A stretch of 40,363 nt of DNA, taken from a virus. Within the stretch, counting starts at the first letter, position 1; every line of letters begins with the position of its first letter. Below are positions 1 through 40,363 of this stretch, piece after piece. The translations under genes were made by a program, and so were the position numbers. Below the pieces are notes generated by a model. That model did not search any database. It saw only the letters and a list, made by a program, of their open reading frames with translations, and was not told the DNA's origin. The DNA lies in IMG/VR virus record IMGVR_UViG_3300017691_000004, positions 1-40,363 of that record. One strand, 5' to 3'.

Positions 1-123
1 ACGCTTGGCGAGGGACACGTTCAAGGCGCCAAACTTGCCGCCGACCACAGCAGCGGTGCCGCCGGTCGCACGCTTGCTCATCACGTTGTCAATGAGCGCC
101 AGCGAGGTCGCCATGTTGTTGGA
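1..123. repeat. Terminal overlap, copy 1 (identical to 40241-40363)
   Basis: Direct comparison of both ends: acgcttggcgagggacacgttcaagg...ccatgttgttgga occurs at both ends. Confidence 0.97.
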
Positions 124-2393: not shown

Positions 2394-2415
2394 CAGGCGA
2401 TTATACCCCCAACTG

Positions 2416-20875: not shown

Positions 20876-21361
20876 TTAGGGAACCTGAGTGGCTGACACA
20901 AGGGTAGACATTGCCCGCCGGCTCCATCCCAGACCATATTTTGCCCAACCAGACAATGAAGCGTAGTGCAGCATCCGAATAGCCTGGATCTCTGCCGCCA
21001 GTTTCACCGGATCAACACGGCCCACAGCCGCCAGCGTCATGGGGCCAATCTGACCATCGGCGGTGACGCCAGCCGCACGTTGTAGGAACTTGGCGGCAGC
21101 GCCCACGCCTTGGTTTACGCCGGCATCGAACACCACCAGAGCCACAGCCCAGGGCATGGAACCACAGCGGAGCTTGTCCCAATAGTCACGGCGGTAGATG
21201 CCCAGCGCATCGGCATGGGTCAGGGTCTTGATGTTCAGGCTGGGATAAGCGCGCTTCGAGATGCCCCACTGCGTTTCGCCGCCGGGGTCGTCCTTGTCGT
21301 TCACGTAGCCGCCCTCATGGGCGATGATGAGCGCTGCGGCAGCGGGGTAGAAGTCGGTCAT
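20876..21361 (-). CDS. Endolysin, glycoside hydrolase family 108 with a PG_binding_3-type C-terminal domain
   Basis: IIAHEGGYVNDKDDPGGETQWGISKRAYP is the GH108 signature. FDAGVNQGVGAAAKFLQRAAGVTADGQIGPMTL is the peptidoglycan-binding repeat. Confidence 0.9.
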   Translation of the reverse strand: MTDFYPAAAALIIAHEGGYVNDKDDPGGETQWGISKRAYPSLNIKTLTHADALGIYRRDYWDKLRCGSMPWAVALVVFDAGVNQGVGAAAKFLQRAAGVTADGQIGPMTLAAVGRVDPVKLAAEIQAIRMLHYASLSGWAKYGLGWSRRAMSTLVSATQVP

Positions 21362-21705
21362 GCCACGCCCGCCTTCTGCCGCGCCACCTCTTCCTGAATG
21401 GCGTTCACCAGCCCCGGCATCGTAGAACCGGAGTTTTGCATGGCCTGCGGCTTGGAAGCGGCGATCTCCTTGGCTGCCGTGATGGCGCTGATCGTCGGAC
21501 TGGCCGGGTCAAGGATCTGTGCAGCCTTGGCCTTCACAGACACCTCAAGCCGGTTTACAGCAGAGGTGGTGATCTTCTCGGCCAGCCACTGGCGCGCCAC
21601 GGGTAGCAGCAGGGTCACGCCATAACCGGCGACGCCCATGACGCCAACGGCGAACGTGCGAAGCAGCAAGTCCAGCCCCATGCGAATCTCGTCCCAGCTC
21701 TCCAT
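21358..21705 (-). CDS. Membrane protein of the lysis cassette (holin candidate)
   Basis: It has a hydrophobic segment LLLRTFAVGVMGVAGYGVTLLLPV and overlaps the endolysin start (ATGA). Confidence 0.45.
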   Translation of the reverse strand: MESWDEIRMGLDLLLRTFAVGVMGVAGYGVTLLLPVARQWLAEKITTSAVNRLEVSVKAKAAQILDPASPTISAITAAKEIAASKPQAMQNSGSTMPGLVNAIQEEVARQKAGVA

Positions 21706-21706
21706 C

Positions 21707-21946
21707 TTAGTTCTCTCTCGGTTTAGGTGGTGGGGGAAGCGGCGGAGGTTGATTCCATATCACACCATAGTCCCTGCGATCATCGGGGAACCCTCGCAGG
21801 CGGCAACGCCGGGGCACCTGGCGCGCCGCGAAGGCCGGTGATGGAACGAACGTCAGACCTAAATTCTTGGAAGTCGCCCCGCAGGCTGCCGATGCTGTCG
21901 GCAATACGCCCCATACGGTCATCTTGCGACTCGTTCGCCTTCTCAA
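21707..21946 (-). CDS. Possible o-spanin-like Pro-rich lipoprotein in an overlapped frame (tentative)
   Basis: MRRRTSRKMTVWGVLPTASAAC|GATSK...NQPPPLPPPPKPREN. It begins inside the 3' end of the upstream gene in another frame and ends 1 nt before the next ATG, filling an otherwise 75-nt gap. The lipobox is imperfect (S at -3). The composition is also what a GC-rich off-frame would give. Confidence 0.3.
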   Translation of the reverse strand: MRRRTSRKMTVWGVLPTASAACGATSKNLGLTFVPSPAFAARQVPRRCRLRGFPDDRRDYGVIWNQPPPLPPPPKPREN

Positions 21947-22181
21947 CGGCTAGAAGCCGGCGCTCTACATTGGCCTGATCGGCCACGAGGCGCGGGATGG
22001 CGGATGTTTCTGCCCTGATGCCTGAGATCATGGCCTGCACTTCGCTCAGCTTGTTGCTCAGATTGGTGGAATTGACCTGGCCCTGCACGGCCCAGGCAAT
22101 CACCAACACGCAACCCGTCACGACCGGCCACCACCCGAGATAGTCACTCGGTCTGAATGGGCGGGGTTGGCTATCTGGCAT
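21780..22181 (-). CDS. N-terminally anchored coiled-coil membrane protein (i-spanin candidate)
   Basis: The TM segment YLGWWPVVTGCVLVIAWAV is followed by a long heptad-like region. The ATG at 22181 has GAGGA 9 nt upstream. Confidence 0.45.
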   Translation of the reverse strand: MPDSQPRPFRPSDYLGWWPVVTGCVLVIAWAVQGQVNSTNLSNKLSEVQAMISGIRAETSAIPRLVADQANVERRLLAVEKANESQDDRMGRIADSIGSLRGDFQEFRSDVRSITGLRGAPGAPALPPARVPR

Positions 22182-22250
22182 TACGCCCATTCCTCATGGT
22201 TGTTGATATATATTACACAACCTTTGAGATGGTTGGGAGTGGCAAGAAAT

Positions 22251-22287: not shown

Positions 22288-25200
22288 TTAAAGCCCGTAT
22301 TTCTGGCGCATGTTCGCCAAGATCGTGCCGACGTTCGCCTTGGTCGGGTTCTTCAGCAGCACGCCCTCGACAAACTGGCCGGCGATGGCATCCTGGTTGC
22401 CTTCACCACGGTTGCCGATATGCAGTGCACCCGCACCGAAGGTCGCCGTAAAGCCCCCGGCGCCGTCAGTCACCACGCCTGCGGCATTGATGAACACATT
22501 GCCATCCGTCGTGTAACCAACGCCCGCCGCAAGCATGGCGTTCGCGGTAAAGGGTGCCCCTTCCACCTGCTGGAACTGCCCAGCCTTGGAGCGCAGGGTG
22601 GACACCCGATAGGTCATGGCGATCAGGCCGGCGCTGGTTTCATTGTCGTAGTCATGGGTCTGGCCGGTGGCCAGAAACGTCACCATGCGCTGAGCGGAGT
22701 TGGACCCGTACTGCGACAGAAACACGCCTACGAAACCGAGGCCGCGGGAATTGATGTTCAGCCCCGGAACCAGCAGCTTCTGCGTGCCGTTGAAGTCCAC
22801 CGCCACGAAACCATCCAGCTTCGACAGAAGCGCCTGGTTCTGGATCACCCGCCCGGCATCCGCATAGGGCGTTGTTGCGTGCAGCCCGTTGAACTGGCCG
22901 GTCACGCGCACCGGCTTAGCCACGAACTTGGTGCCGGCAGCAGCCAAATAAGCGTCTCGGCTGGCCACGCCATCGGTCATCATCACCGGGATCGGCGTCT
23001 CAGCGTCCTGCTGCAACCGGGCGATCTCGCCGTTCGCAGCATAGGCCGTGGTCAGCCGGCGGTTGAAGGACCACCCCTCAACGATATCGCCATCATCGAT
23101 GCCGAAAATATTGGTCCCCGGCGTCACCACCGCTGTCGAAACGGTGACGGACAGGTTGACCACCGCGCTGGTGCCGGCGGCATTGGTCAACGATACCGGC
23201 ACCACCTGCGTGCCCGGCGCCTGGCCGGAGAGATCGGTCTTGGGGTAGAGGACGTTGCCGTTGCGGATCTCGTACACGTTCGCATAGGGCGAGCCAACGG
23301 TACCGTATGCAGGCGCACCGCCGGTGTAGGCGATGGTCTTGATCGCATCGGAAGAAGTGGCGCTGGTGGACGCCGATGCGGTCTGCCCGCTGGTCACCAC
23401 CGGTGCGGTCAGCGCGGCCGCCCGGGTCTGGCCATAGCGGACAATCGAGAAGTCCACGTCGTTCCGCAGCGTGTTGTTGTCGGTATACGTCTTGCCACGC
23501 GGCCAACCAGCGATGATCGACAGAGCGGTCTCCACGCCACTCGTCGGCAGGCCGAAGGTCTCGCAGAGATTGCGATATTCGTACATCAGGGCGAGCAAGC
23601 GGAGCGGGTAATCGTTGCCCACATCCACCGCCACGTTCGCGAAGTTGTCGCCGCGCGTCGTGATGCCGCCGCCACCGTTATAGGAGCCCAGCGCCGCATA
23701 GGTGCTGGTCCAGGTGCCGGCAGTCAGCGGAGCCCCGGTCGGGCCGCCGGGCGTCGCGAACCGCAGGTTATACTGCGACACGTCGGCGCCGAACCAGCCC
23801 GTCTGGTTCTGCATCAGCCGGATGAACATCTCGCAGATGCGCTGGGCGTTCTCGACTGCGCCCTCGTACTTCATGAAGGCGCCACGGACACGCATCTGCG
23901 CGTCCATCATCATCTGCCACGGCGCGCCCTGCCCGCCCTGATCGCCGTAGACCCACTCCTCGCAAGCGCCGGCCAGAACCGGACCCTGGGCTGCCGACAG
24001 CTGCGCCCACCGGGCATTGTGTCGGCGAAAGGAGGCTTCGGAGATGATCTGATGAAGACCGCCGTACTGCTCGGCCGCCGGAGCGAGCGCACCGACATTC
24101 TGATGCTGGCGACGCTTCCAGGCCTGGCCGCGCACCTGGTTGCCACGGACGATGTTGGCACCCTCGCCCAACTCGGCCAGCTTGGCACGCCGGGCGGCCT
24201 TGCCAGCCGGCGTGTCGGAGCCATTCCCGGCGGCCTGGGCGAGGTCGCCGCGCTCGCTGCCGTTGGGTGCCGCCTTCATCACGCCATAGGACGCCTGCCC
24301 CAGCAGGCCATCCAGGAACGAACGGCGGCCGGTGAAGGCATAGGGCACGGTGAAGCTGTCGGGCCAGTGGCCTTCTTCCACAACCCAGTCGCCATACGAG
24401 TAGTCAATCTGGCCATCCGTGTATTTCCGGCGGCCGTTGCTCTCAATGAAATCCGGGTCCTGATAGAACAGCCGGCTGTAGGGTCGGTCGATCGGGTTGA
24501 CCCACTGGCCGTTGGCAAAGTCGAAGCAATGCTGGGGGATGCCAAGCGCCGCTTCTGCCTGGCCGATGGCATAGGCGCGAGCGCGCTTGTCGCCGCTGAT
24601 CATCCATGCGGCGTTCGGCTGCGTCGTCTCGCCCACGTCGCCGCGCGCGCCGCTGAAGCCCATGTCCTTCTGAATGTCGCGGTTCGAATAGGGCGTGTTC
24701 CAGTCGGACTGGCCCATCTTGGAGGCATAGAACTGGAGCTTGCTCTCCAGGATGCCCAGGCCCTTGTCGTAGTTGGCGATGATGCCGGTGGGGGAGACGT
24801 ACTCCGGGTCCGGCTTCATGATCACCGCGTCATCGGTCACCGCCTGCCCCTGCGCATCCCACCGCGCGCGCAGCGGCACGGACGAGTAGAGCCAGGACCG
24901 GGTGATGGCCAAGGTCTTGGTGAACCCGTTGTCGCCCACGATCTTCAGCGTGAACGAGGCGTCGCCCATGTTCGGCACGAAGCAGCGCCGGTTCCAGGGA
25001 TTGGCTTCCAGCAGGATTGAGCCGTCCGAATAAGTGGCCAGATCAATCAGCACGTCCACGTTGGTATTGCCGCCCACTGCGGCGCGGGACGGCGAGAAGG
25101 TCTGCCGGGTCTGCGCGCAGAGCGGACCGCTGAACCAGCGGTTGCTGTCGAGCTGGGCCACGCAGTTGAAGGTCTCCGTGGTGGAACCATTGCTGATCTC

Positions 25201-26100
25201 CACCCGGGCAGTGCGGCCGGACAGGGCCGTGGCCATGTTGATCGGGGTGCCGGTCGCGGTGACGCCATCACGCCAGACGCTGGCACTGTTCAGCGCGCCG
25301 TTGGACAGCGCCGGCGCCGGGATGTGCAGCACCGCGTGACGAAAGCTGCCATCCGGCCAAGTGTTGCCCTTGTAGTCCACCTGCGTGGTGACCCGGGTGC
25401 CATTGGCCAAGCGGACGCTCAGCGCGTCGCCCGCATTCAGGTCGCCCTGGCGCATGGGCAGCCCGAAGGTGTGGACCGTGCCGGCCGGCGCGCCCGTGCC
25501 CTCCATCGGATAGGCGGCGAGTTGGCGAGCGGTGCCGGGGTCCACCGGGGTCACAACCTCGGTGATGGTCACCGGCAAGGTGGTGGTCACCGGATCAGCA
25601 CCAGGAAGCGTGTCGGTGAAGGTGAAATTGACGGTGCCGGGCGAGAACGCGATCCCGCCGCTCTCAATCACGGTCTGATTGCTGTTAGACCGATAGCGGG
25701 CGCGCCCATCGTTGGGAGAAAGCGCGGAACGCGTGGCGCCAGATTGAACGTTTGACACCACAAACAACGTGGTGCCTTCCGGCACCGCGTCGGCCACTTC
25801 ACTGCGGCTTGCTGGCGAGAACGTGGGGGGAACCAAGACGCCAGGCTCAGGAGTGGAGCCGCCACCGCCCGGCAAATAACCGCCATCGTCCAGAATTTGC
25901 TGCACCAGAGAACGCGCAGTGTCAGCATCGATCTTATTCGGCACCACGCCTTCCAGCGCGGCAACCCGCGCCGTGATTCCGGTCTTGGCCAGAATGGCCT
26001 CGGGAGACGTTTTCAGCGGTCCCTGCCCAACCTTGGCTACAGGAATAACATGCCCTGCATCCAGAACAGAAACCGGGGTTGCGTCAGTGATCTTTGCCAT
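22288..26100 (-). CDS. Large tail spike/fibre protein (1270 aa), putative glycan-degrading receptor-binding protein
   Basis: The N-terminus MAKITDATPVSVLDAGHVIPVAKVG has the common fibre/spike N-terminal pattern. The size and the position before the lysis cassette fit. The central region is rich in W/Y/H/D, as in carbohydrate-active domains. Confidence 0.7.
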   Translation of the reverse strand: MAKITDATPVSVLDAGHVIPVAKVGQGPLKTSPEAILAKTGITARVAALEGVVPNKIDADTARSLVQQILDDGGYLPGGGGSTPEPGVLVPPTFSPASRSEVADAVPEGTTLFVVSNVQSGATRSALSPNDGRARYRSNSNQTVIESGGIAFSPGTVNFTFTDTLPGADPVTTTLPVTITEVVTPVDPGTARQLAAYPMEGTGAPAGTVHTFGLPMRQGDLNAGDALSVRLANGTRVTTQVDYKGNTWPDGSFRHAVLHIPAPALSNGALNSASVWRDGVTATGTPINMATALSGRTARVEISNGSTTETFNCVAQLDSNRWFSGPLCAQTRQTFSPSRAAVGGNTNVDVLIDLATYSDGSILLEANPWNRRCFVPNMGDASFTLKIVGDNGFTKTLAITRSWLYSSVPLRARWDAQGQAVTDDAVIMKPDPEYVSPTGIIANYDKGLGILESKLQFYASKMGQSDWNTPYSNRDIQKDMGFSGARGDVGETTQPNAAWMISGDKRARAYAIGQAEAALGIPQHCFDFANGQWVNPIDRPYSRLFYQDPDFIESNGRRKYTDGQIDYSYGDWVVEEGHWPDSFTVPYAFTGRRSFLDGLLGQASYGVMKAAPNGSERGDLAQAAGNGSDTPAGKAARRAKLAELGEGANIVRGNQVRGQAWKRRQHQNVGALAPAAEQYGGLHQIISEASFRRHNARWAQLSAAQGPVLAGACEEWVYGDQGGQGAPWQMMMDAQMRVRGAFMKYEGAVENAQRICEMFIRLMQNQTGWFGADVSQYNLRFATPGGPTGAPLTAGTWTSTYAALGSYNGGGGITTRGDNFANVAVDVGNDYPLRLLALMYEYRNLCETFGLPTSGVETALSIIAGWPRGKTYTDNNTLRNDVDFSIVRYGQTRAAALTAPVVTSGQTASASTSATSSDAIKTIAYTGGAPAYGTVGSPYANVYEIRNGNVLYPKTDLSGQAPGTQVVPVSLTNAAGTSAVVNLSVTVSTAVVTPGTNIFGIDDGDIVEGWSFNRRLTTAYAANGEIARLQQDAETPIPVMMTDGVASRDAYLAAAGTKFVAKPVRVTGQFNGLHATTPYADAGRVIQNQALLSKLDGFVAVDFNGTQKLLVPGLNINSRGLGFVGVFLSQYGSNSAQRMVTFLATGQTHDYDNETSAGLIAMTYRVSTLRSKAGQFQQVEGAPFTANAMLAAGVGYTTDGNVFINAAGVVTDGAGGFTATFGAGALHIGNRGEGNQDAIAGQFVEGVLLKNPTKANVGTILANMRQKYGL

Positions 26101-26430
26101 TCAGCCGAACTCCACCAGGGAACCATCGTCCCATTGCAAAACGTTGGGTTGCAAATCAGCCAAAGCTTCGGCCACGGCCTGTCTCACAACATCAGCGATA
26201 TCGGTAATATCACCAATTAGCCCGCCTGGCGCTAGAACTTCATCTTCAGCAAGACCGCCCAATGGTGTTGAACCATCGGGCGTGTAGCCATCCGAGTTAT
26301 TGCCCTGTAAGTCCAGAAGCATCTTGGCTTCCAGACTTTGAGCGAGGGTCAGGCCTCCAGCGCCACGGGCAATCTTTTGCGCTTCGGTATCAAGCCTAAC
26401 CTGCGCCCCACGGCCTGGGTTTGGTGCCAT
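26101..26430 (-). CDS. Small protein, member B of the RGAQVRL-motif family
   Basis: MAPNPGRGAQVRLDTEAQKIARGAGG...DGYTPDGSTP. It lies immediately upstream of the 1270-aa gene and in the same frame, separated by one TGA. Confidence 0.6.
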   Translation of the reverse strand: MAPNPGRGAQVRLDTEAQKIARGAGGLTLAQSLEAKMLLDLQGNNSDGYTPDGSTPLGGLAEDEVLAPGGLIGDITDIADVVRQAVAEALADLQPNVLQWDDGSLVEFG

Positions 26431-26442
26431 ATCAGCAGCCTC

Positions 26443-27438
26443 CTAGCGGCCGTAGACGACGATGGTTACTGCGGTAGACGGCGCAGTCTCGAACGGACCC
26501 GCAGTCAACAGCAGCGTGCCCTTGGACCGCTTCACCAAGACAGTGCATCCGGTCAGAGTCTTAGCCGTGACGCCGCCACCCACATACTGATCGCTCACCC
26601 ACGTCGGGTTGATGCGAATGTCCAAGACCTCAGTAAAGGCGGATGAGAAGGTGAAGGTAGCGATGCCGCTGGTGTTGCTGGTGGCGGTGTAAATTTCGAT
26701 GCGAGTTGGAACGCCGGCAGGGCCTTGCGCACCAGTGGCGCCCGTCGCTCCCTGAGGGCCAGTGACACCCTGCGGGCCAGTGGCGCCCGTATCGCCTTTG
26801 GCGCCAGTAGCCCCGGCCGCTCCAGTGTCCCCCTTGGGACCAACAGCGCCTATCGCACCAACGTCACCCTTGGGACCGGTGGCGCCAACGGCGCCAGTCG
26901 CGCCCGTGTCGCCTTTTGGCCCAGTTGGTCCGACAGAGCCAGTAGCTCCGGTATCTCCCTTAGGGCCTGTAGCTCCAGCAGGACCGACAGCACCTGCTGC
27001 GCCAGTATCGCCTTTCGGGCCGGTGGGGCCAGCGGCTCCTGTCGCTCCGGTGTCGCCCTTTGGTCCAGTCGCACCAGTGGAGCCAGCGGGGCCGGTGGGG
27101 CCTACAGCGCCAGTATCACCTTTGGCACCAGCAGGTCCGGCAGCGCCAGTAGACCCGGTGTCACCTTTGGGACCAGTAGGACCAGCAGGGCCTTGGCTCC
27201 CAGCAATCCCTGTATCGCCCTTAGGTCCGGCAGGACCAGTCGCACCCGCCGGCCCCGGCACAGGCGCCTTCTGCTCCAACACCCCAACCCGATCCGTCAG
27301 CGCCAACCGCGCGTCACGACCGGTATTCAGTCGGTTCGTAACCTCGGCGAATGCAGCCGGGATCGGGTCCATATTGCCATGGGCAGCCTGCGCCGAGAGA
27401 ACGTCTACCGGCTTCACTTCATCAGGATTGTCGCTCAT
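26443..27438 (-). CDS. Collagen-like triple-helix-repeat fibre protein with a globular C-terminal domain
   Basis: About 60 uninterrupted G-X-Y triplets (aa 62-242), with the recurring unit GPKGDTG. The 90-aa C-terminus is beta-rich ([20 protein letters not shown]...). Confidence 0.9.
26713..27255. repeat. Coding tandem repeat (9-nt periodic G-X-Y region of the collagen-like gene)
   Basis: Repeated ggnccnaarggngayacngg-type units are visible on the minus sense. Confidence 0.85.
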
Positions 27439-27731
27439 GCCTGCCTCTGCTGAACGCCAGCCGTGTTGCGATAGAAGCCGCCGACAGGGACGCCAGCAGC
27501 CGCAGCCGCCGCGTCATTGGCCGCAATGGGGAACAGCGGCGTAATCAACGGGTCCAAATCAATCCCGCCATCAGGGTTCGGCTGACTGGGCGTTCCGTAG
27601 TTATCCAGCGTCGTCACGGCATTGCGAGCGTCCAGATTGCCCTCCTGCGAACCGCTCACCGCACCTCGCGCGGCAGCCTGTGCGACCCCTGACAGGACCA
27701 CTTGGGCGCCATGCCCACTATCGGATGCCAT
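27435..27731 (-). CDS. Small protein, member C of the RGAQVRL-motif family
   Basis: [27 protein letters not shown]...[11 protein letters not shown]. It has an ATGA overlap with the collagen-like gene. Confidence 0.6.
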
Positions 27732-27769
27732 TGCTGGATTCCTTTCGCGAAGATGAGTAAGCTAAGCCC

Positions 27770-27970
27770 ATGCCCGCCATGATCCTACAATGCGCCATGA
27801 CTTGCATCTTCTCTTTCGTCGGCTTCTGGTGGGCATACGATATGCCGAACACCGCAGCACGAACACTCGCCGCCGTTATAACAGGATTTGGCGGCATTTG
27901 GCTCACCATGTTTGCATGGGCATGGGTGCTGCACGGCTGGAAAGCCGCCCGCACCCTGTCCATGGACTAG
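27770..27970 (+). CDS. 66-aa two-TM membrane protein encoded antisense to the tail operon (moron-like)
   Basis: MPAMILQCAMTCIFSFVGFWWAYDMPNTAARTLAAVITGFGGIWLTMFAWAWVLHGWKAARTLSMD has two aromatic-belted hydrophobic helices. It occupies the 235-nt gap between two minus-strand genes. Confidence 0.45.
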   Translation: MPAMILQCAMTCIFSFVGFWWAYDMPNTAARTLAAVITGFGGIWLTMFAWAWVLHGWKAARTLSMD

Positions 27971-29703
27971 TCATTGATCTGCGCCAGCCCCTGCTGAGCG
28001 AGCAGGTTGTTCCGCAGGCCGGAGATGGCCTGGCGGGTGCCGGGGCGGACGGCCTGATTGCGCAGATAGGACTGCATCAGCGGGTTAACGTAGGCGGCGC
28101 GAGCAATGGCTGGCAAAGCCAGGCCACCAATGGCACCGACACCAGCACCAATCGGCCCGCCGATCATGGCGCCGACAGCCGAACCGCCAGCTGAGAACCC
28201 GCCGCCAGTCAAAAGCTGATTCATCTGCGTGCGGCCCGCCGTGCCGCTATCGGGTGGGGCACGAAGCACGCCCTGGCCAATACGCGCCAGCTCGTTTAGA
28301 TCACCCTGACCGCGCGCGTATCCTTGGCCGGTACTCTGGTTGACCGCGCTGCGGAGGGCCAGAGGACTGATATTGCCTTCAGCAGCCCCGGAACCAGCGC
28401 CGCCAACTGCTTTCTCAGCCACCATAAGGTTCGCATACTCACGCCGTGCTTGCTGCCACTCGGCCTGATCCGCCGGGCTGATGCTGTCGTCCATGGCAGT
28501 GCGCAGACGACCACGAATATCGCTCAAAGCCGACCGCAGGTCGCCGTTAGACGTGCTTCGGATATTCCGTCCAAGCTCACTATCAAGCTGACGGTAGGAA
28601 TAGCCAGGAACCGTTCCGATTACGCTATTTGGCGTGGTTACAGATCCAGTGGGGATCTGATTCGGAGTCATCATCCCACGAATCTGCTCAATCCGCGCGC
28701 GAATTGGACCACCCACCTCAGGCGTCAGAAAGCGCAAGCTGCCTTCGATATTCCGAAGGTCAGTATCTACACCAGAGGTGAAATTCATGGTGTTACGATT
28801 GGCCAAATCCCCAATCTGGCCGCCAATACGCGCTCGCTCCCGGTTCAACACGTCAGGGCCGGCATTGTCCGCCACAGCTCCCGCCCGACTGAGAACCGCA
28901 CGGTTAAATGCCTGCTGCTGCGTCTGAGCAAACGCCGCCTCAGCTCCAGACGTGCCGGGCAGCTGAGCAAACGATCCCTCCATGTTCTGAAGAACACGCG
29001 ATCCCGTCGCCTGCCCAGCGGACAGCGGAATGCCCTCCCGCTCAGCAGCCGCCACCAAGGCCGCCCGCGCCGGGCTGAGGGTGTTGGTCACAGGCGAGAT
29101 CAGCCGTGCCGCACCCGCAGCGCCAAAGGGCAGAGCTAGTGTAGCTGCTACACCAGCTAGCGGGCTATTCGTAGCTTCTCTTACTGCGCCGCCCAAGGCA
29201 CCACTAGCCAGCTGGACCACAGGCAGTGCGCTGAGAGAACTACCCACTCGTTCGAGAAGCCCCCCCGCCTGAGCATATCTGGACGCCCCAAGCGCGGGCA
29301 CCAAAGTCGCAGCCGCATCGACTGCGCCAGTCCCCGCCCCGTAGGCTGCCCGCTCCAAAGTCCCTTGAGGCTCAGGCGCCTTGCCGGTGATCCCACGGAT
29401 GCCACGTTGAATACTGGCCGAGCCACCAAACGCATCCTCTGGCACCGGCACGCCAATGGCGCGCAAGCCCTTGCCAGCCAGATCCACCGGAGCGCCCAGA
29501 ACATCAGACAAGCGGTCATTCACGCCAGCCGCAGCCTGCGTGGGAATCGCCATGGCCTGCTCTGCCAAGCCACGCTGTGGTGCAGCCTGCTCGGCCGGCA
29601 TGTTCTGCCGGAAGTATTTCAATACCTCATCCTGAGACGCCCCATCAGGCGCGGTGATGACGAACTTCCGGCCATCCGGTGCGGAGATTTCGAAATCAGG
29701 CAT
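27967..29703 (-). CDS. Putative internal virion / DNA-ejection protein
   Basis: A 578-aa ORF in a position analogous to the P22 ejection-protein genes. It has a Gly-rich hydrophobic C-terminal segment GGGFSAGGSAVGAMIGGPIGAGVGAIGGLALPAI. Confidence 0.45.
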   Translation of the reverse strand: MPDFEISAPDGRKFVITAPDGASQDEVLKYFRQNMPAEQAAPQRGLAEQAMAIPTQAAAGVNDRLSDVLGAPVDLAGKGLRAIGVPVPEDAFGGSASIQRGIRGITGKAPEPQGTLERAAYGAGTGAVDAAATLVPALGASRYAQAGGLLERVGSSLSALPVVQLASGALGGAVREATNSPLAGVAATLALPFGAAGAARLISPVTNTLSPARAALVAAAEREGIPLSAGQATGSRVLQNMEGSFAQLPGTSGAEAAFAQTQQQAFNRAVLSRAGAVADNAGPDVLNRERARIGGQIGDLANRNTMNFTSGVDTDLRNIEGSLRFLTPEVGGPIRARIEQIRGMMTPNQIPTGSVTTPNSVIGTVPGYSYRQLDSELGRNIRSTSNGDLRSALSDIRGRLRTAMDDSISPADQAEWQQARREYANLMVAEKAVGGAGSGAAEGNISPLALRSAVNQSTGQGYARGQGDLNELARIGQGVLRAPPDSGTAGRTQMNQLLTGGGFSAGGSAVGAMIGGPIGAGVGAIGGLALPAIARAAYVNPLMQSYLRNQAVRPGTRQAISGLRNNLLAQQGLAQIND

Positions 29704-31332
29704 TTACTGCACCGGGCGGATAGACCACCCGCCTCCCTGAGCGGAAGCTTGCGTGGTGGTCGTGGCTGGGGCCGGGCTGGATTCACCACCAGACCCGCGC
29801 CCCACCGAAGCCGGAACGTTGGTGAACGGCGACACGTCCGTTTCAGGCAGACCGTTCTCAGTGCGGCGCCGATTGATCAACTGCGTGCGGTAGCGAATCG
29901 CCCGCTCGTTCAACCGCTGCAATTCTTCCAAACGCTGCTTCACCACACCCGGTGAGTTGATGTTGTCCATCAGTTCAGCCGCCGCTCGCTGAGCATCGCC
30001 ATCCGTCTGCACGCCCTTGTTGAGGCGAAGGCTGTCATTGACAATGCGCGTCATGGTGGAGCGGTAAGACTGAAGGTTCCGGCTGTTCTCAGTGTCAGCG
30101 CCGAAGAAATTAGCGCCAGTATCGATGGCATTACTGACCAAGCCGAAGTTCAGCTTACCGCTATCGATCTGGCCACGCAGCGATGCCAAGTCGGACGAGA
30201 TGCCAGATGCCGTCTGAATGGCATCAATGTCCTCTTGCTCGGCCTTCTGAATGAAGGGCGGGATAGGAGCACCAGTCCGACGAGCAGACGCCATGGCGCG
30301 GGCCTGCTCAGGGTCAGCCGGGCCACCCGGAATTGCCTCAAGCCCACCTTCTGCGGTCGCCCGGTAACCCGGCGGAATACCTTCACGAGCCGCAGCGCGC
30401 CGCGCGGCCTCATCTTGGCGCTGAGCCGTCTGCTGCTGAAGCCGCAGCAACTCAGCCTGCCGAGCGTTGTCCGCAGCCCGATCAGCCGCCATGGAACTCT
30501 GCTGATTCATCTGCATCATCAGCCCCGGCACCGCACCAGGGTTGGTCTGAGCAGTCACAGCCAGAAGGCGGCGCTGTTCTGGCGTCAAGCCACCAGAAAC
30601 AGGCGCAGCGGCAGGCGGCGCTACGCCCTCATAGGCGCCATTGAAACCGGGATTAGCGCGGAAAGTCGTGCCAACTGGTTGCCCGGTCAAAGCACTGGCT
30701 CGCTGCATGCTAATCTGACGCATCGCCTCCTGCTTCTGCTCAGGAGTGAGGTTTGGATCTTCATTGATCCTATCACGCTCAGCACCAGCAGAAACGTTGT
30801 CGGCTCGCACTGCCTGACTACCGTTACCACCCTGATAGGTGCCGGGAGTAGCGGGGGTTACAGGTGCGGCGGATGGCATCGACACAGGCGTGTATCCCGG
30901 CGTCGCGCCACCCATAGATGCGCCACCAGCAGCAGGAACACCACCGAACAGGCCAGCCAACGCCTCGCTCTGGCGCCGCTTCTCTTCGATCTGCAACCGC
31001 TGAAACGTCGTCAGATCCGACGCCGCCACAGACTTCAGGCGCTCCAAGCCAGGGAACTGCTCGGGCAGATCACGGCCGAATCCGGCCGCCTGCAACCGCT
31101 GACGCTCCTGACCCCAAGCCGCTGCCGCCTGATCTTCTGGCATCCCGACCAGCTGGCGCGCCAAGCCAATGCGGGCCTCCGTATCCCGCTGATACGTCTG
31201 CTGCTGCTGGTCCTGCTGCGCGTTCTGCATCAGAAGCTGGTTGCGTTGAAAGCCTTGCACCTGAGCATCCACGCGCGCGGGATCGAACAGGATGTTGGGC
31301 GATGCAGACGCAATGGGGCCAAAGGTCGCCAT
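29704..31332 (-). CDS. Putative internal virion / DNA-ejection protein (Gln/Ala-rich)
   Basis: A 542-aa ORF with low-complexity Q/A/R-rich helices, coupled to both neighbours. Confidence 0.45.
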   Translation of the reverse strand: MATFGPIASASPNILFDPARVDAQVQGFQRNQLLMQNAQQDQQQQTYQRDTEARIGLARQLVGMPEDQAAAAWGQERQRLQAAGFGRDLPEQFPGLERLKSVAASDLTTFQRLQIEEKRRQSEALAGLFGGVPAAGGASMGGATPGYTPVSMPSAAPVTPATPGTYQGGNGSQAVRADNVSAGAERDRINEDPNLTPEQKQEAMRQISMQRASALTGQPVGTTFRANPGFNGAYEGVAPPAAAPVSGGLTPEQRRLLAVTAQTNPGAVPGLMMQMNQQSSMAADRAADNARQAELLRLQQQTAQRQDEAARRAAAREGIPPGYRATAEGGLEAIPGGPADPEQARAMASARRTGAPIPPFIQKAEQEDIDAIQTASGISSDLASLRGQIDSGKLNFGLVSNAIDTGANFFGADTENSRNLQSYRSTMTRIVNDSLRLNKGVQTDGDAQRAAAELMDNINSPGVVKQRLEELQRLNERAIRYRTQLINRRRTENGLPETDVSPFTNVPASVGRGSGGESSPAPATTTTQASAQGGGWSIRPVQ

Positions 31333-31988
31333 TAGTAGACGCCTCGCGTCTGGCTATAAGTCTGCGGCGCCAAAGCGTTCTGCTGCTGAAGGGCATCCGT
31401 CCGCTGCTGATACTGGTAGTTGTTCATCCCTTGCCCGATGGCGTTGCCGATGCCGGATGTGGTGTTGCCATAGATGCTGGCCTGCGCGCTTCCCAAGCTG
31501 GCTTCAGTCTGCGCGATACCGGCGGCCGCTTGTGCCCCAGCCGCCGCCGTGCCTGCCGCCGACGCCTGCCCAAGCTGGGTCATGCCCATCAGCCGGTTGT
31601 AGTAGGTCGTGAAGTCCTGATTGGCGAGGTTAGCGCCTAGCTTCTGCTCAGCCGCCAGCGTGGAGCCAGACCGCAGCAAACCACGCGCCGCAGCGCCTGT
31701 ATCGACAGCCTTAAGACCTTCCGATACCTGATAGCCATACCCAGGCGAGGACTGGAAATTGGCCATCGCCGTGTTAGCGGCTTCCTGCCCGTTCAGCCCC
31801 AGCAGGTTCTGAGCCGGGGCCAGAGCGTTGACGCCAGCCTGCGTGAATGGCGCCAGGTCAGCGCGCGTCTGGGCCTGTTGCCGCTCCTGTGCGGCAATCG
31901 ACTTGTCTGCGGCCTTGCTCGTGGCCTTGGACTGCAAAGCCCCACCCACAACGGTGGCAGCCCCTAGCGCGGCGGCGCCCCACGGCAT
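31332..31988 (-). CDS. Putative internal virion / DNA-ejection protein (Gly/Ala/Gln-rich)
   Basis: A 218-aa ORF with a hydrophobic N-terminus MPWGAAALGAATVVGGAL. Confidence 0.45.
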   Translation of the reverse strand: MPWGAAALGAATVVGGALQSKATSKAADKSIAAQERQQAQTRADLAPFTQAGVNALAPAQNLLGLNGQEAANTAMANFQSSPGYGYQVSEGLKAVDTGAAARGLLRSGSTLAAEQKLGANLANQDFTTYYNRLMGMTQLGQASAAGTAAAGAQAAAGIAQTEASLGSAQASIYGNTTSGIGNAIGQGMNNYQYQQRTDALQQQNALAPQTYSQTRGVY

Positions 31989-31991
31989 CTC

Positions 31992-32327
31992 TCAGCCCTC
32001 CATCTCAAGCTGGTGTTCTTCGTGAATATCCACGTCCTCGCCCTCAGCCATGGCGTGCAGGCAAAGCACCAGCGTGCCATCCACCAGCGTTTCGAAGCGA
32101 TGCTTGGCTCGCGCCGCGATCTGGACCGCACATGGAGCGGTGAACTCGCCCATGAACTCGCCGTCCTTCCAGATGGCGACAGCGCCAGCCGCCAGATAGG
32201 AGATGTGGTCGTAGGTGTGGGCGTGCTGAGGGATCACGGTGCCGGCCTTGGCGCTGAACATCTCCTTAACGAAGACGCCGCCATAAAGGTGGACGTTGCC
32301 GACAGGCTGTTGAGTGGCTTCCATCAT
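31992..32327 (-). CDS. Small cupin-fold protein
   Basis: GTVIPQHAHTYDHISYLAAGAVAIWKDGE...AKHRF fits the cupin motif 1 (H-x-H-x3-H/E) and motif 2 His. There is an ATGA overlap with the hydroxylase gene. Confidence 0.6.
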   Translation of the reverse strand: MMEATQQPVGNVHLYGGVFVKEMFSAKAGTVIPQHAHTYDHISYLAAGAVAIWKDGEFMGEFTAPCAVQIAARAKHRFETLVDGTLVLCLHAMAEGEDVDIHEEHQLEMEG

Positions 32328-32884
32328 GCTGCCGCATCCCTCAGAGTGATCACAAGATTAATCCTCTCCACATTACCAGCATTAGTGATGGAATGCGGCA
32401 CCAGATTATCGAATTCCCAGATTTCGCCCTCTCGGAACACCACTTCCTCATCCAAGGTCGTGTTGATGCACCGCACATTAGTCTGAAGCGGCACATAGAA
32501 CTTCCGATTGTAGTAACGCGCCGTCCAGGCGGCACCATCCGTGTGGGTCTTGATCTCGCCCCCTGCCGGAATGCGCGAGATGAGACAGGTTCCCAACTCG
32601 ACACCCCGAAACGTCGCCATGAGGTTGAAGGCAATCGGATGCACAGCCGATAAGGCGTGCCAGGCGTCATAAAACGCGCAATGACCCTCGCCCAGGTAAG
32701 ATTCCGGTCCAGTCAGCGTTTCGCGCGGGAAATACCGGAGCCAGATGTCCGATGTGCCCTGCATGGGGCCGTCATCCCGCTCCGTGCGCTCCCGATACTG
32801 GTCCCACAGCTCTGGCGCAGCGTTCAACTGCGCCATGATGGGCGAAACGTCCAGACCCTCATGCACACGGGCGAAATACTTCAT
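32324..32884 (-). CDS. Aspartyl/asparaginyl beta-hydroxylase-like (LpxO/ASPH family) 2OG-Fe(II) oxygenase
   Basis: ISRIPAGGEIKTHTDG...KFYVPLQTN...FREGEIWEFDNLVPHSITNAGNVERINLVITL parallels the family pattern L.PG..I.PH.g...rlr.HLgL...W.eG....FDds..H.v.N.....RliL. The start is at 32884 (TGATG overlap). Confidence 0.7.
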   Translation of the reverse strand: MKYFARVHEGLDVSPIMAQLNAAPELWDQYRERTERDDGPMQGTSDIWLRYFPRETLTGPESYLGEGHCAFYDAWHALSAVHPIAFNLMATFRGVELGTCLISRIPAGGEIKTHTDGAAWTARYYNRKFYVPLQTNVRCINTTLDEEVVFREGEIWEFDNLVPHSITNAGNVERINLVITLRDAAA

Positions 32885-33210
32885 CAGCCCAGCCTCACAT
32901 ACCACCGGACACCGCCTGCATCGGCCGCATTCGGTAGATTGAACGTCATGGAGCCGTCACCAGCGCCAAACGTCGTGCCGTAAAGCGAAAAAAGCCCCGG
33001 ATTGTCCTTCCGGCTCACAGCAGAACCGTCTGCACGCGCAAAAGCCTTGCCAGGATCTGACAGGCCTGCCGGAAATGGGTAAAAAGCGCCGACAGAGCCA
33101 AAAGAAGGATCGGATGCGACGCCCAATTGATCGAAAAACGCCGCCCAAGGCTCGGAAACGGTCTGTTTTCCTGACTCCGCCAGTGGTTCAATGGTGGGCG
33201 GGCGCAACAT
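32884..33210 (-). CDS. Short fibre with a phage tail-collar domain
   Basis: GAFYPFPAGLSDPGKAFARADGSAVSRKDNPGLFSLYGTTFGAGDGSMTFNLPN matches the tail-collar (MdpB-like) pattern P.G...cdG...s...yp.Lf..iG..yGgdg.ttF.lPd. Confidence 0.75.
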   Translation of the reverse strand: MLRPPTIEPLAESGKQTVSEPWAAFFDQLGVASDPSFGSVGAFYPFPAGLSDPGKAFARADGSAVSRKDNPGLFSLYGTTFGAGDGSMTFNLPNAADAGGVRWYVRLG

Positions 33211-34622
33211 CAGGACTCTCCAACCTGGATATCGGCATCTGCGCCATAGAACGTCACGATATCCTCAGCTTGCAAGCGCAAAACCCGCTGCCGAAAGCTA
33301 CCCATGCGCGTACTGAACACCCGCTTGCGGTGATCGCCAGACGCACCGCTGCTCATGAAGCGGGGTGTCGTGAAATCCCGCCCGCCGTTGTCCGACCAGT
33401 CCAACTGAATAGACGGATTGACTGCGAGAGTGCCGGAATCCAGCTCCACTTCGAAGCGGGACATGAACGCCCGCTTGGTATCAGCCCAGATCGGCGGGAA
33501 ACAGGCGATGCGTCGCAGCGTCACGCCCACGTCGTTGCGAGTTTGCGGGTCCAAGCCAAACACCACGGCGCTGAATCCATCGCCAAAGATCGCCGTGCCA
33601 CCGAACTGGGCTGAGCAATCTGCCCGCCACCGCCCCGCCCCACCCGCGCCACTGGCCCGCCGATGCCATTGCTTGGTGGCGGCATCGTAAACCCAAGTCC
33701 GACCCTCAGATCCATCAGCGCGCTGAAAGCTCAAGGCATAGAAGTAATGCCCCGTTTGAGAATACGCCAATCCAGAGGTAAACCGCACCTCGCCAAAGTC
33801 GCGAATCCATTCCTCAATGGCGTGCGTGCTGATCCTCTGGGCCGTGTACCCACTGGACCGATAGATGATACCGTTGGTGCCCAGCCAGACGAGCGAGTTA
33901 TCGAACTCCGCCACCGTCGCCGCATTGGACGTGCCAAATGGAATATCACCGCCAGACCGCCGCTCGAATGGAGCATTGGCGTTGCCGGTGACGAACCACA
34001 CCTCAACGCCCGTCTCACCGAACAGCCACAGCTCGCCACGATGGAACATGGCTCTCTTCAGCACATTCGGGCGCGCATCGGCACTGGCGAAGGACAGACC
34101 ATCATAGGTGTCAGCGTCCAGCAGGTTCGACCAGAAGAACTGATCGCTCCCGATATCATCGGCCGTGAACACCCAATACCCGGCGATGTAGGTCACGCTG
34201 GATGCGCCAGGGAACGGCTGATCCGAAGTTCCGGTAATCTGACGCAGAGTGGAAGATGCCGAGTGACTAGCCACCCAAGCATTCGGCGGAATACACACCA
34301 CCACCGTGGTTGGTCCCACAGCAATGGTGGGGCGTCCTGAACCGGTGACGGTGCCGATGGACACCGCCCCACCCTCGGCCGTGTAGCGGATGAACTGGTT
34401 TCCAGCCACGGCATAAAGCCTGCCGGGCTGGTCGGAATTCAAAGCCCGGATGGCGCCAGTCTCGAACGTGAAGACAGCCGCCAAGCCTGGCGTGCTCTTG
34501 ATGATGGCCTGCGAGCGCGCTTCCGGTGGGGCCTGCTCCACATAGAGATTGACCAGATCCTGCGCATCCGCCGGCAGGCTGTTCAACTCGTAGGTCTGGG
34601 TCGGGAACGGAATGCGCTGCAT
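33210..34622 (-). CDS. P22 gp10-like tail hub protein
   Basis: It is 470 aa (P22 gp10 is about 472 aa, recalled from memory). The N-terminus DLVNLYVEQAP...STPGL, the mid region ELWLFGETGVEVW and the C-terminal end RVLRLQAEDIVTFYGADADIQVGES parallel the gp10 layout as I remember it. Confidence 0.65.
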   Translation of the reverse strand: MQRIPFPTQTYELNSLPADAQDLVNLYVEQAPPEARSQAIIKSTPGLAAVFTFETGAIRALNSDQPGRLYAVAGNQFIRYTAEGGAVSIGTVTGSGRPTIAVGPTTVVVCIPPNAWVASHSASSTLRQITGTSDQPFPGASSVTYIAGYWVFTADDIGSDQFFWSNLLDADTYDGLSFASADARPNVLKRAMFHRGELWLFGETGVEVWFVTGNANAPFERRSGGDIPFGTSNAATVAEFDNSLVWLGTNGIIYRSSGYTAQRISTHAIEEWIRDFGEVRFTSGLAYSQTGHYFYALSFQRADGSEGRTWVYDAATKQWHRRASGAGGAGRWRADCSAQFGGTAIFGDGFSAVVFGLDPQTRNDVGVTLRRIACFPPIWADTKRAFMSRFEVELDSGTLAVNPSIQLDWSDNGGRDFTTPRFMSSGASGDHRKRVFSTRMGSFRQRVLRLQAEDIVTFYGADADIQVGES

Positions 34623-37184: not shown

Positions 37185-37808
37185 TCATGCGTACTCTACA
37201 GTCTGGCCATCTTCCCACAACAGCACCGTCCCGTCATCCCAAAGCACAGTATTAGGGCCAACGATCACTTCGCCGTCGCCATCTCCCGGATCTTCCCCAC
37301 CGCCGTCCCCTGGGTCTTCACCACCACCACCATCGCCCGGACACGGCACGACAATAATGCCGCTGCCTGTGTCCAGATAATACCCATCGGACGTGGTAAG
37401 AGCGCAGCCAATGATGTCGTTTGTGCTGCTGAAGCGATGACCATAAGCCGCCATCACGTTGATGACGCCAAAGGCCACCACGGAAGCTTCTGAGGAATCA
37501 CCCAGCGTTACACGCCAAGGGATCTGCCCTCGGCCATCACGCGTCGTGAAGCCCATCATGTCAAAATAGAACTGCCCGGACTCAAAGGACAGAAATGTGC
37601 CGTCCCTCGAATACCCCCGGCCATCACCAAACGAGAAATACGCCGCCATACCCGACGTATTGAGCGGGGTCGTATCCCCATCCCGCTCATAGACGGTAAT
37701 GAGCAGCCGGACCTTCTCACCCGATGTGATGATGAAATTGCGCTGCGGCGGGGCTTCCAGCGGGCCGTAGGTGCGGCACACCGCGAACGGCAGGGTCCGG
37801 CCAGCCAT
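37185..37808 (-). CDS. Hypothetical virion protein with a short Gly/Asp-rich tandem repeat
   Basis: A 207-aa ORF containing PGDGGGGEDPGDGGGEDPGDGDGE near the C-terminus. It shares base 37808 with the upstream gene. Confidence 0.5.
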   Translation of the reverse strand: MAGRTLPFAVCRTYGPLEAPPQRNFIITSGEKVRLLITVYERDGDTTPLNTSGMAAYFSFGDGRGYSRDGTFLSFESGQFYFDMMGFTTRDGRGQIPWRVTLGDSSEASVVAFGVINVMAAYGHRFSSTNDIIGCALTTSDGYYLDTGSGIIVVPCPGDGGGGEDPGDGGGEDPGDGDGEVIVGPNTVLWDDGTVLLWEDGQTVEYA

Positions 37809-39382: not shown

Positions 39383-39733
39383 TTACTTCTTCGCTCGGGG
39401 AACGGTCTTGGCATCGCCCTCAGTGGCAGGCGGGTCCTTCGCGTCAACGCGCGTGGTGCCCTCCTCAGCCGGGGTCTTGCCACCCGCGTCAGCCTCAGTG
39501 GTCACAACCACATCAGCCGCCGGCTTGCCCGTCAGGGTGGAGCCATCCGGGGTGCTGCCATCGGCAACGGTCCCGTCCGCTTCCAGCGCCTTCTTGGCGA
39601 GGGTGTTTTCCTCGATATCGCCACCCATCCCACCGCGCGCGGCCATCTGGGCCTCGCCGGTCAGACGGACCTGGGCGCCACGGCTCGGAAGCCGCTCACC
39701 CTCAAGCTTGACCTTCGGTTCAGCCATTGTCAT
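39383..39733 (-). CDS. Small protein, member A of the RGAQVRL-motif family, directly downstream of the capsid gene
   Basis: ...LPSRGAQVRLTGEAQMAARGGMGG...DGSTPDGSTL. AAGGAGG lies upstream of the ATG. Confidence 0.6.
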   Translation of the reverse strand: MTMAEPKVKLEGERLPSRGAQVRLTGEAQMAARGGMGGDIEENTLAKKALEADGTVADGSTPDGSTLTGKPAADVVVTTEADAGGKTPAEEGTTRVDAKDPPATEGDAKTVPRAKK

Positions 39734-39739
39734 GCCTCC

Positions 39740-40363
39740 TTACGCGTCGCCAACGCTGGCGCCGAACATGGTGAAGATGCCCTGATCCACCGGGCTATCC
39801 GTGTCGTTCGTCGGGTCACGACCGAAGCGCAGCTTGTCGATGCCGCGCATCTCCTGAAGACCAACGCCGTGCATGAAGCCGTAGTCACGCATGTTAGTCG
39901 TGGTCTTGGTCTTCTGCGCCCACGCCACGCCGATAGCCTGAGCGCCGCAGAGGTAGCCCGCCGCAACGTCAATGCCACCAGCACCAGCGCCAGCGATCTT
40001 GCCCATCTCGGGGATCTCGCGGACGATCACCTGATCCCAGATCAGATCGCCACCCGTGAACAGGGGGTTATCCTCACCGCGAGCCGCCGCGAACTTCTGC
40101 GCCTCGTCAATGATCGGGTCAGACTTGAAATCGCGGAAACCGTCGCTGTTCAGGAACAGGACGAACCACTCTTCAGCGCTCTTGGTGCCGCGATTGCGGA
40201 CCTGAATCGGACGCAGGCGCGGGTTGGCGTTCTTGGCCAGACGCTTGGCGAGGGACACGTTCAAGGCGCCAAACTTGCCGCCGACCACAGCAGCGGTGCC
40301 GCCGGTCGCACGCTTGCTCATCACGTTGTCAATGAGCGCCAGCGAGGTCGCCATGTTGTTGGA
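39740..40363 (-). CDS. Major capsid protein, 3' part (continuation of 663..1)
   Basis: Track ORF 39740..40354 is the C-terminal 204 aa. The frame stays open to the window end and matches bases 1-123. Confidence 0.85.
   Translation of the reverse strand, partial: SNNMATSLALIDNVMSKRATGGTAAVVGGKFGALNVSLAKRLAKNANPRLRPIQVRNRGTKSAEEWFVLFLNSDGFRDFKSDPIIDEAQKFAAARGEDNPLFTGGDLIWDQVIVREIPEMGKIAGAGAGGIDVAAGYLCGAQAIGVAWAQKTKTTTNMRDYGFMHGVGLQEMRGIDKLRFGRDPTNDTDSPVDQGIFTMFGASVGDA
40241..40363. repeat. Terminal overlap, copy 2 (identical to 1-123)
   Basis: Direct comparison of the two ends. Confidence 0.97.

Follow-up and report, generated by a model that had tools for sequence, protein, structure and literature searches.

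The virus record IMGVR_UViG_3300017691_000004 of IMG/VR (positions 1 to 40,363, the whole stretch of 40,363 nucleotides [nt] analyzed here and called the window) encodes three small proteins of 98, 109, and 114 amino acids (aa) that share a sequence module of about 58 residues. On balance, we think it probable that this module is a small, self-contained domain through which exchangeable receptor-binding payloads dock to the virion. This proposal comes from comparing architectures across a large protein family. As the same conserved N-terminal domain precedes interchangeable depolymerase, esterase, lectin, or fibre bodies, we read it as a virion-docking anchor.

Under this reading, a clade of uncultured podophages whose portal, hub, and ejection proteins are of the P22 type would attach interchangeable payloads to the particle through the module. 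Each genome would carry one core copy without a payload (class I below), encoded between the capsid and adaptor genes, and a variable number of other copies (class N) in which the module is followed by 0 to ~1850 residues of depolymerase, esterase, lectin, or fibre. The 114-aa protein would be the core class I copy of the window, and the 98- and 109-aa proteins, here called small98 and small109, would be minimal class N proteins. The former would consist of the anchor and a C-terminal tip domain of ~30 aa and the latter of the anchor and a short helical tail, and both may act as mini-appendages or site-fillers at docking sites that full spikes use in sister phages.

The module and its family

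A six-frame scan for the pattern GAQVxL...AQxxARG found exactly three module copies in the window. In BLASTP comparisons, small109 matched the third protein (in a 116-aa form with an alternative start) at E = 6e-14, with 50% identity over 62 aa, while small98 matched small109 at E = 2e-6 and the 116-aa form at E = 3e-7. The corresponding Smith-Waterman z values were 16.5, 8.1, and 7.4, and no shuffle out of 2000, all composition preserving, reached an observed score. The C-terminal halves of the proteins, by comparison, aligned with scores below the shuffle mean. Between the copies of the 109- and 114-aa proteins, the module DNA is 52% identical overall and 29% identical at third codon positions, arguing that the copies are old. 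A first-pass annotation of this DNA had proposed that three open reading frames (ORFs) share an N-terminal module, had suggested shuffled sequences as a check, and had called the C-terminal halves unrelated and the copies old; all of this is borne out.

The extent of the module needs one amendment. All three proteins match a 58-position profile, RGAQVxLxGxAQxAARGG...N..AK..LE..G..ADG.TPDGST.TG, with small98 matching well over the first half only. The module of about 55 aa that had been described as common to all three is thus present in the 109- and 114-aa proteins, whereas small98 clearly has only its first ~33-40 residues. In AlphaFold2 (AF2) models built on family alignments, the module is predicted to be a compact unit of two short helices and ordered loops, with block-mean confidence (predicted local distance difference test [pLDDT]) of ~69-87.

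A profile of the three proteins, searched against a set of 5.8 billion proteins, recovered 110 metagenome proteins of 87-201 aa, none of them functionally annotated and those with a name at their source being called hypothetical protein; these included P0006 (98 aa) and close homologues of the 114-aa protein (P numbers denote database proteins, and L numbers denote loci in relatives). A second profile, restricted to the module and run with no word index, yielded 157 clusters at E <= 1e-3 from 1.84 billion representative proteins (50% identity clusters), 98 of them with E <= 1e-10 and with P0001 (109 aa) at E = 4e-23; eight of the listed matches were low-complexity false positives. Local domain mapping of 223 true members separated two classes. 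In the 125 members of class N, the module begins no later than residue 10, as a rule at residue 7 behind MASxxG or MPATATG, and lengths range from 67 to 1917 aa, 60 members having at least 300 aa. Class I, with 98 members, carries the module behind a low-complexity N-terminal extension of 14-106 residues, and all its members are small, at 84-211 aa. What every class I protein and small98 have in common is confined to the first half of the module (GAQVxL...ARGG...EN).

What follows the module in class N is diverse. Pfam matches among 61 large class N proteins were to Pect-lyase_RHGA_epim (12), Beta_helix (8), Lipase_GDSL_2 (7), NosD (3), Laminin_G_3 (2), and Cadherin (2) and to BNR_2, GH5 cellulase, SASA, and Baseplate_J (1 each); the models matched once or twice include those of lectins, sialidases, and sialate esterases. 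GDSL esterase payloads are encoded at loci L006, L008, and L019, P0068 matches tail-fibre PHROGs, and P0126 (881 aa) matches the tail spike of Caulobacter phage Sansa. Short class N proteins end instead in an R.A cap, an LPTTLPATxGVxWNNGGxL cap, short coiled coils, or TFQDGSPVVF-type strands. The N-terminal position of the module in more than half of the family, together with these spike-type domains in proteins of 300-1917 aa, supports the earlier suggestion that the module docks to a common virion site.

Nothing described resembles the module, as the first-pass annotation had supposed in recognizing no known family. The three window proteins have no Pfam, PHROG, or NCBIfam match at E <= 0.01, and comparison of the module to PDB sequences and folds returned chance matches only. 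Searches of cultured phages by tblastn with the 116-aa protein, the consensus module, and P0126 gave no N-terminal match, and bacterial genome contigs scanned for prophages held no relative. From these searches, the module appears to define an undescribed family that is so far confined to uncultured phages.

The class I gene and the proposed site of docking

The window proteins were mapped against 51 loci from IMG/VR and the JGI/ENA metagenomes, with genes in the relatives called as the longest ORFs on the same strand. The family always occurs together with Phage_capsid_3 and, where that gene is in view, with a P22-type portal. In the window, the major capsid gene is split across the two ends, indicating a circularly permuted whole genome; L027 has the capsid gene intact (387 aa), and each window end is 100% identical to its part of that gene. 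At ~40.4 kb, this podophage genome is complete and carries P22-like head-completion and ejection modules. The genes of the region, including all three module ORFs, lie on the minus strand and are given here in the order of transcription:

39740-40363 plus 1-663, minus strand: major capsid gene (Phage_capsid_3, PF13252; phrog_334), C-terminal part in 39740-40363 and N-terminal part in 1-663
39383-39733 (likely start 39727), minus strand: third module ORF, class I family member
37808-39376, minus strand: 522-aa gp4-like head-to-tail adaptor, with five ALRRLGV units and tandem gp4-like cores
37185-37808, minus strand: 207-aa protein
34622-37156, minus strand: 844-aa tailspike, with a pectate-lyase-like N-terminal part and a Peptidase_S74 C-terminus
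33210-34622, minus strand: 470-aa P22 gp10-like hub (phrog_578)
32884-33210, minus strand: tail-collar protein (PF07484)
32324-32905, minus strand: Asp/Asn beta-hydroxylase-like gene (PF05118, E = 3.8e-10)
31992-32327, minus strand: cupin gene (Pfam)
27967-31988, minus strand: three ejection-type proteins (PHROG matches for two)
27718-27963, minus strand: 81-aa ORF
27435-27731, minus strand: small98 (98 aa, class N)
26443-27438, minus strand: 331-aa collagen-like fibre (Pfam Collagen, E = 5.5e-29; PHROG tail-fibre families)
26101-26430, minus strand: small109 (109 aa, class N)
22288-26100, minus strand: 1270-aa spike with a PcRGLX-like (rhamnogalacturonan-lyase-like) domain
20876-22190, minus strand: two small ORFs, then the endolysin (phrog_315)

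The third module ORF had been placed at 39383..39733. That ORF exists, but its start is most likely 39727, which lies 7 nt after AAGGAGG and is where database homologues begin; the product (MAEPKV...) has 114 aa, and the alternative start at 39733 would give 116 aa. The module is internal in this protein (residues 16-73, nt 39509-39682) and has a low-complexity tail on either side. In the AF2 model, only the module folds confidently, and the tails are predicted to be disordered. Its gene lies between those for the capsid (39740 onward) and the adaptor (37808-39376), as is characteristic of class I. The gene that follows this post-capsid copy therefore encodes a P22 gp4-like adaptor and not a fibre, correcting the earlier description. 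A class I gene is present in 22 of 23 distinct capsid-to-adaptor intervals, the exception being a frameshift-riddled assembly. The class I proteins of one clade keep only the first half of the module, and those of L015, L019, and L024 have, by eye, a C-terminal immunoglobulin (Ig)-like sequence. The ratio of nonsynonymous to synonymous substitution rates (dN/dS) of the 114-aa protein compared to L002 and L003 is 0.13-0.16, and that of small98 compared to its L011 homologue is 0.06, values that indicate purifying selection on both genes. Directly after the capsid gene, some relatives carry ORFs that resemble HNH-type homing endonucleases by eye, from C-terminal motifs (L013 12617-13354, L015 1885-2718, L022 1035-2024, and L043 4473-5303).

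The position of class I recalls that of the cement protein gp6 of cyanophages Pam1 and Pam5, which is likewise small (140-158 aa) and encoded in the identical slot between the major capsid and adaptor genes. In both phages, the protein is annotated from the cryo-electron microscopy structure of Pam1 (PMC9382816), the closest relative whose structure is solved. Homology between class I and these cement proteins was considered and ruled out, with hhalign probabilities of 0.6% for Pam1 and 0.1% for Pam5. By sequence, the Pam proteins moreover look beta-rich, whereas class I is modeled by AF2 as a two-helix module with disordered tails.

Where on the virion the module might dock is suggested by two features of the relatives, and we softly favor the capsid or portal vertex over the tail hub. 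One is that the class I gene occupies the cement slot. The other is that the module is conserved like the capsid and portal (~50-70%) and unlike the adaptor (~30-35%) or hub (~40%). Identities to the window proteins are 58-72% for the capsid, 56-73% for the portal, 48-97% for the module, 26-65% (mostly 30-37%) for the adaptor, and 38-43% for the hub. A more elaborate head-centered version can be imagined, in which class I in the cement slot recruits class N proteins by pairing or site sharing. Exchangeable depolymerases, esterases, Ig domains, and mini-fibres would in that case be displayed at the capsid or portal vertex, and small98 and small109 would be blank or tip-only plugs that tune occupancy. 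We regard this version as unlikely, though worth keeping in view.

Several considerations weigh against a docking domain of this kind. The presence of module proteins in the virion is deduced from their architecture, and the fold search of the PDB with the module offered no help. The cement-slot argument is positional, given that the Pam1 and Pam5 proteins are nonhomologous at hhalign probabilities below 1%, and the conservation argument is soft, as a short domain may be conserved for reasons other than its partner. Depolymerases anchored to the capsid would be unusual; the anchors known from classical systems attach to tails. Small109, with its unique sequence and atypical codon usage, may be a nonfunctional remnant. 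Finally, the payload-less copies, both class I and the 72-aa ORFs described below, would have no evident purpose if one type of site serves all.

In a different arrangement, class I is a virion-bound socket, held in the cement slot by its own tails, and class N modules plug into it by pseudo-homotypic oligomerization with the class I module. Essentially every genome does have one class I gene beside variable class N genes, and the two classes look like ancient, separate paralogues: the class N module of the window is closer to class N modules of other phages (up to 59-63% identity) than to the class I module of its own genome (50%). That the first half of the module alone is common to all class I proteins and small98 would also suit such pairing. 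However, homologous domains in several proteins more often reflect a shared partner than mutual pairing, and no class N gene is seen in the 19-kb stretch of L005, which has class I. We consider a socket of this kind improbable, and docking of both classes to the virion remains our preferred reading.

The 98- and 109-aa proteins beside the fibre and spike genes

The module of small98, in its shortened form, occupies residues ~7-40 (nt ~27612-27713), starting at residue 7 as is usual for class N and omitting the DGxTPDGST half. Residues ~60-98 (nt 27438-27554) form a C-terminal cap mini-domain. The stop codon of small98 overlaps the start of the collagen fibre gene (ATGA). Homologues of small98 are 100% identical in L036-38 and 82% identical in L011, and the collagen fibre is 84-91% identical in L036-L038. 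The cap mini-domain, which belongs to no Pfam or PHROG family, occurs in at least 703 database proteins; the 120 best matches (P0238-P0357) are all stand-alone proteins of 34-77 aa in other podophage types. In SU10-like podophages, the cap gene lies within the tail-gene cluster. The cap is at the extreme C-terminus in 18 of 18 family members carrying it and in 17 further sequences that were read, and it also ends module-family members of 195 and 709 aa. By this distribution, it behaves as an autonomous tip-type mini-domain.

These features bear on the claim of the first-pass annotation that the module docks to the virion while the variable C-terminal halves hold, in trans, the fibre encoded downstream, that is, the collagen-like fibre for small98 and the 1270-aa spike for small109. 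Gene coupling is tight (the ATGA overlap in one case and TGAATG in the other), the pair of small98 and collagen fibre is kept in L011 and L036-38, and neither the collagen fibre nor the 1270-aa spike has a module of its own. Fusions provide a further hint of the Rosetta-stone type: the body of P0128, a module-bearing protein of 1917 aa, is homologous to the 1270-aa spike (E = 4e-13), and the body of the 844-aa spike is also fused to the module in P0199, P0170, P0129, and P0151.

The wider context argues otherwise. Whether homologues always stand beside fibre genes had been named as a check. In L043, L045, and L046, the gene for a module-plus-cap protein of the small98 type (102 aa) is flanked by those for the portal and scaffold, and no fibre gene adjoins it in the stretch covered. 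One is found just upstream of the scaffold gene in L042, where only the scaffold side is in view, and another follows the portal gene at the contig end in L044. The cap is a general C-terminal tip that also ends the longer members noted above, and no module-collagen fusion was found among the large family members. In the small109 slot, relatives encode a full-length class N spike followed by an independent 1270-aa homologue, and no homologue of the C-terminal half of small109 was found. We thus judge an adaptor in trans to be rather unlikely, and the proposal that the C-terminal halves hold the neighboring fibres is not upheld.

Module-only ORFs of 72 aa point the same way. They are kept in two diverged lineages (L017 and P0142/L056), and the product of the gene after them begins with a signal peptide of the Sec type, not expected if the 72-aa protein and its neighbor were partners in the virion. 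In L017, this neighbor is an arabinofuranosidase-like enzyme. Signal peptides of this type (e.g., MMRIAGAALLAAVLAIASAVA followed by QG) were also noted more broadly on large proteins of the structural cluster, at L017 9641-11572, L056 511-753, and L058 7155-9221 and 9244-11400, with an arabinofuranosidase B catalytic domain in the L017 protein. The signal-peptide proteins of L017, L056, and L058 may be secreted enzymes rather than virion bound.

The module of small109 (residues 7-64, nt 26239-26412) is followed by a unique helical tail of ~45 aa. In the AF2 model, residues 11-60 have pLDDT of ~69-87, and helices span residues 16-21, 29-41, and 78-92. Its TGA directly abuts the in-frame ATG of the 1270-aa spike (26098-26103). 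In sisters L036-L038, the same slot holds a single class N protein of 881-902 aa with the module at residue 7; in L011, it holds one of 693 aa, and in L006, two of 743 and 490 aa. In relatives, the counterpart of the 1270-aa spike is encoded separately, downstream of this slot, and in L036-L038 its own ATG overlaps the stop codon before it. Judged by position, small109 is the apparent equivalent of a full-length module-bearing spike. It is 52% identical to the N-termini of its slot equivalents, which points to mosaic exchange here, and a mosaic replacement of such a spike would seem to have given rise to the gene. The G+C content at third codon positions (GC3) of small109 is 0.50 in both halves, whereas the adjacent spike has 0.82 and most structural genes have 0.63-0.80, which suggests recent acquisition from a source of lower G+C content.

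A further reading takes the gene of small109, and perhaps that of small98 as well, to be an N-terminal stump with little or no present function, left when recombination replaced or deleted a spike body. The slot is filled by proteins of 490-902 aa in all syntenic relatives (L006, L011, and L036-38), to whose N-termini small109 has the modest identity given above, and its GC3 departs from that of the neighboring spike. A homologue search with its C-terminal half found none, and the protein is the sole member of its 90%-identity cluster. On the other side, the ORF is intact behind a strong ribosome-binding site (AGGAGG), the C-terminal helix is ordered in the AF2 prediction, and short module-plus-helix proteins of ~110 aa recur independently (P0073, P0112, P0110, and a 113-aa protein of L049). 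A remnant also fits small98 poorly, considering its low dN/dS and widespread architecture. We hold the remnant explanation to be plausible for small109 but unlikely.

The first-pass annotation had also offered an alternative in which the small proteins would help the fibres encoded downstream to assemble, each as a fibre-specific chaperone. Their small size and adjacency to fibre genes would fit, but searches of Pfam, PHROGs, and NCBIfam matched no chaperone family. Genes for known tail-fibre chaperones usually follow the fibre gene or lie within it, whereas the small genes here lie upstream. The 844-aa spike has its own intramolecular chaperone, Peptidase_S74, the class I copy adjoins the capsid and adaptor genes rather than a fibre, and the module heads 60 large proteins, some with spike-type enzyme domains. 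A chaperone role is accordingly hard to credit, and the module as a docking anchor accounts for these proteins better.

Other connections between the small genes and the spikes were also considered. A recoding fusion of small ORF and fibre was rejected as the principal explanation, as the spike homologues are independent genes with their own ATG and no slippery heptamer lies near the junctions: the 98-aa ORF and the 72-aa ORF of L017 have no XXXYYYZ heptamer, and the single one in the 109-aa ORF is at codons 3-5, near the 5' end. Low-level readthrough of the in-frame TGA of small109, if it occurred, would yield a 1380-aa module-spike fusion resembling the fused proteins of the sisters. An N-terminal docking motif that seemed, by eye, to be shared by the 844- and 1270-aa spikes was dropped (z = 0.0). 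A PNxVLxWDDGxxL motif is common to the C-termini of small109 (26101-26145) and of the 207-aa protein (37185-37260), with a Smith-Waterman z of 4.7 and 2 of 2000 shuffles reaching the score. The LLWDDGxxLLWEDGxxVxY end of the 207-aa protein is kept in L001 and L003, and xFxDGSxxxF-like strands end family members P0068, P0113, and P0116.

The genome, known anchors, and significance

The phage appears to have no close cultured relative. Megablast of the 14-kb region gave no cultured-phage match, and among cultured phages, the closest capsids belong to the Pseudanabaena phages Pam5 (39% identity), Pan3 (37%), and Pam1 (33%). Members of the group probably infect Alphaproteobacteria or other high-GC bacteria of the phyllosphere or soil. 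The portal is of the P22 type (PF16510, E = 1.9e-120). In the adaptor, which presumably resembles the P22 gp4 N-terminus, five ALRRLGV units recur at ~30-aa spacing, with three to five gp4-like core repeats of ~73 aa in tandem; homologues at the same position in relatives have 177-564 aa, so that the repeat number varies, and the extra repeats might conceivably offer module proteins a place to dock. Promoter and terminator scans around the small genes gave nothing above background.

Two further features of the gene order deserve mention. The beta-hydroxylase-like and cupin genes lie inside the tail and ejection module and are kept in relatives (L011, at 74% identity, and L047; the cupin is also in L059), which suggests posttranslational modification of a virion protein. 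As pure speculation, the target could be the DGxTPDGST stretch of the module or the collagen-like fibre. Between the portal and scaffold genes is a GNAT acetyltransferase-like ORF (1860-2600, minus strand) that overlaps the portal ORF, as listed, by ~185 nt; the structural module of Pam1 likewise has an acetyltransferase.

The design of an anchor with exchangeable bodies is already known. Podophage proteins bind the particle through anchors such as the head-binding domain of P22 gp9 and the N-terminal domain of T7 gp17. There, too, an N-terminal domain of tens of residues precedes variable, horizontally exchanged bodies, among them beta-helix and esterase bodies, and several bodies share one anchor within a phage group. 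However, the module has no sequence or fold similarity to these anchors (Pfam, PHROG, NCBIfam, and PDB) and is shorter, at ~58 aa. It is also found internally in a payload-less protein encoded beside the capsid gene, in anchor-only proteins of 72 aa, and in anchor-plus-mini-tip proteins of ~100 aa. What goes beyond the textbook cases is the universal payload-less class I copy in the cement slot, set against a variable complement of class N, together with the anchor-only proteins and the anchor-plus-tip mini-proteins.

Two other groups of known systems invite comparison. T4 Hoc, the phi29 head fibre gp8.5, and SPP1 gp12 are capsid-anchored display proteins. If the module binds the capsid, the hanging of Ig-like domains, fibres, and enzymes on the head would be similar, although depolymerase payloads on heads are atypical of these proteins and the likeness is one of description only. 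Multi-tailspike systems include the gp37-type adaptors of K1-5 and SP6 and the tailspike-to-tailspike attachment of CBA120 and G7C. The present family would share with them several spikes per virion and attachment in trans by small or N-terminal modules. Unlike in those systems, no T4 gp10-like branching domains are among the Pfam matches here, and the adjacency of the small module proteins to fibres is not conserved.

If the module is indeed a docking domain, it would serve as a sequence tag by which a large group of uncultured podophages from soil and plant surfaces could be searched for genes of host recognition and depolymerases, and it would mark the exact breakpoint of spike-body swaps, the window and its sisters differing precisely there. 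A compact handle of ~58 aa would also be available for the engineered display of payloads on phage particles. The payload-less copy in the slot between capsid and adaptor genes raises the possibility that these phages carry enzymes on the head and not the tail, which would be unusual for podophages.

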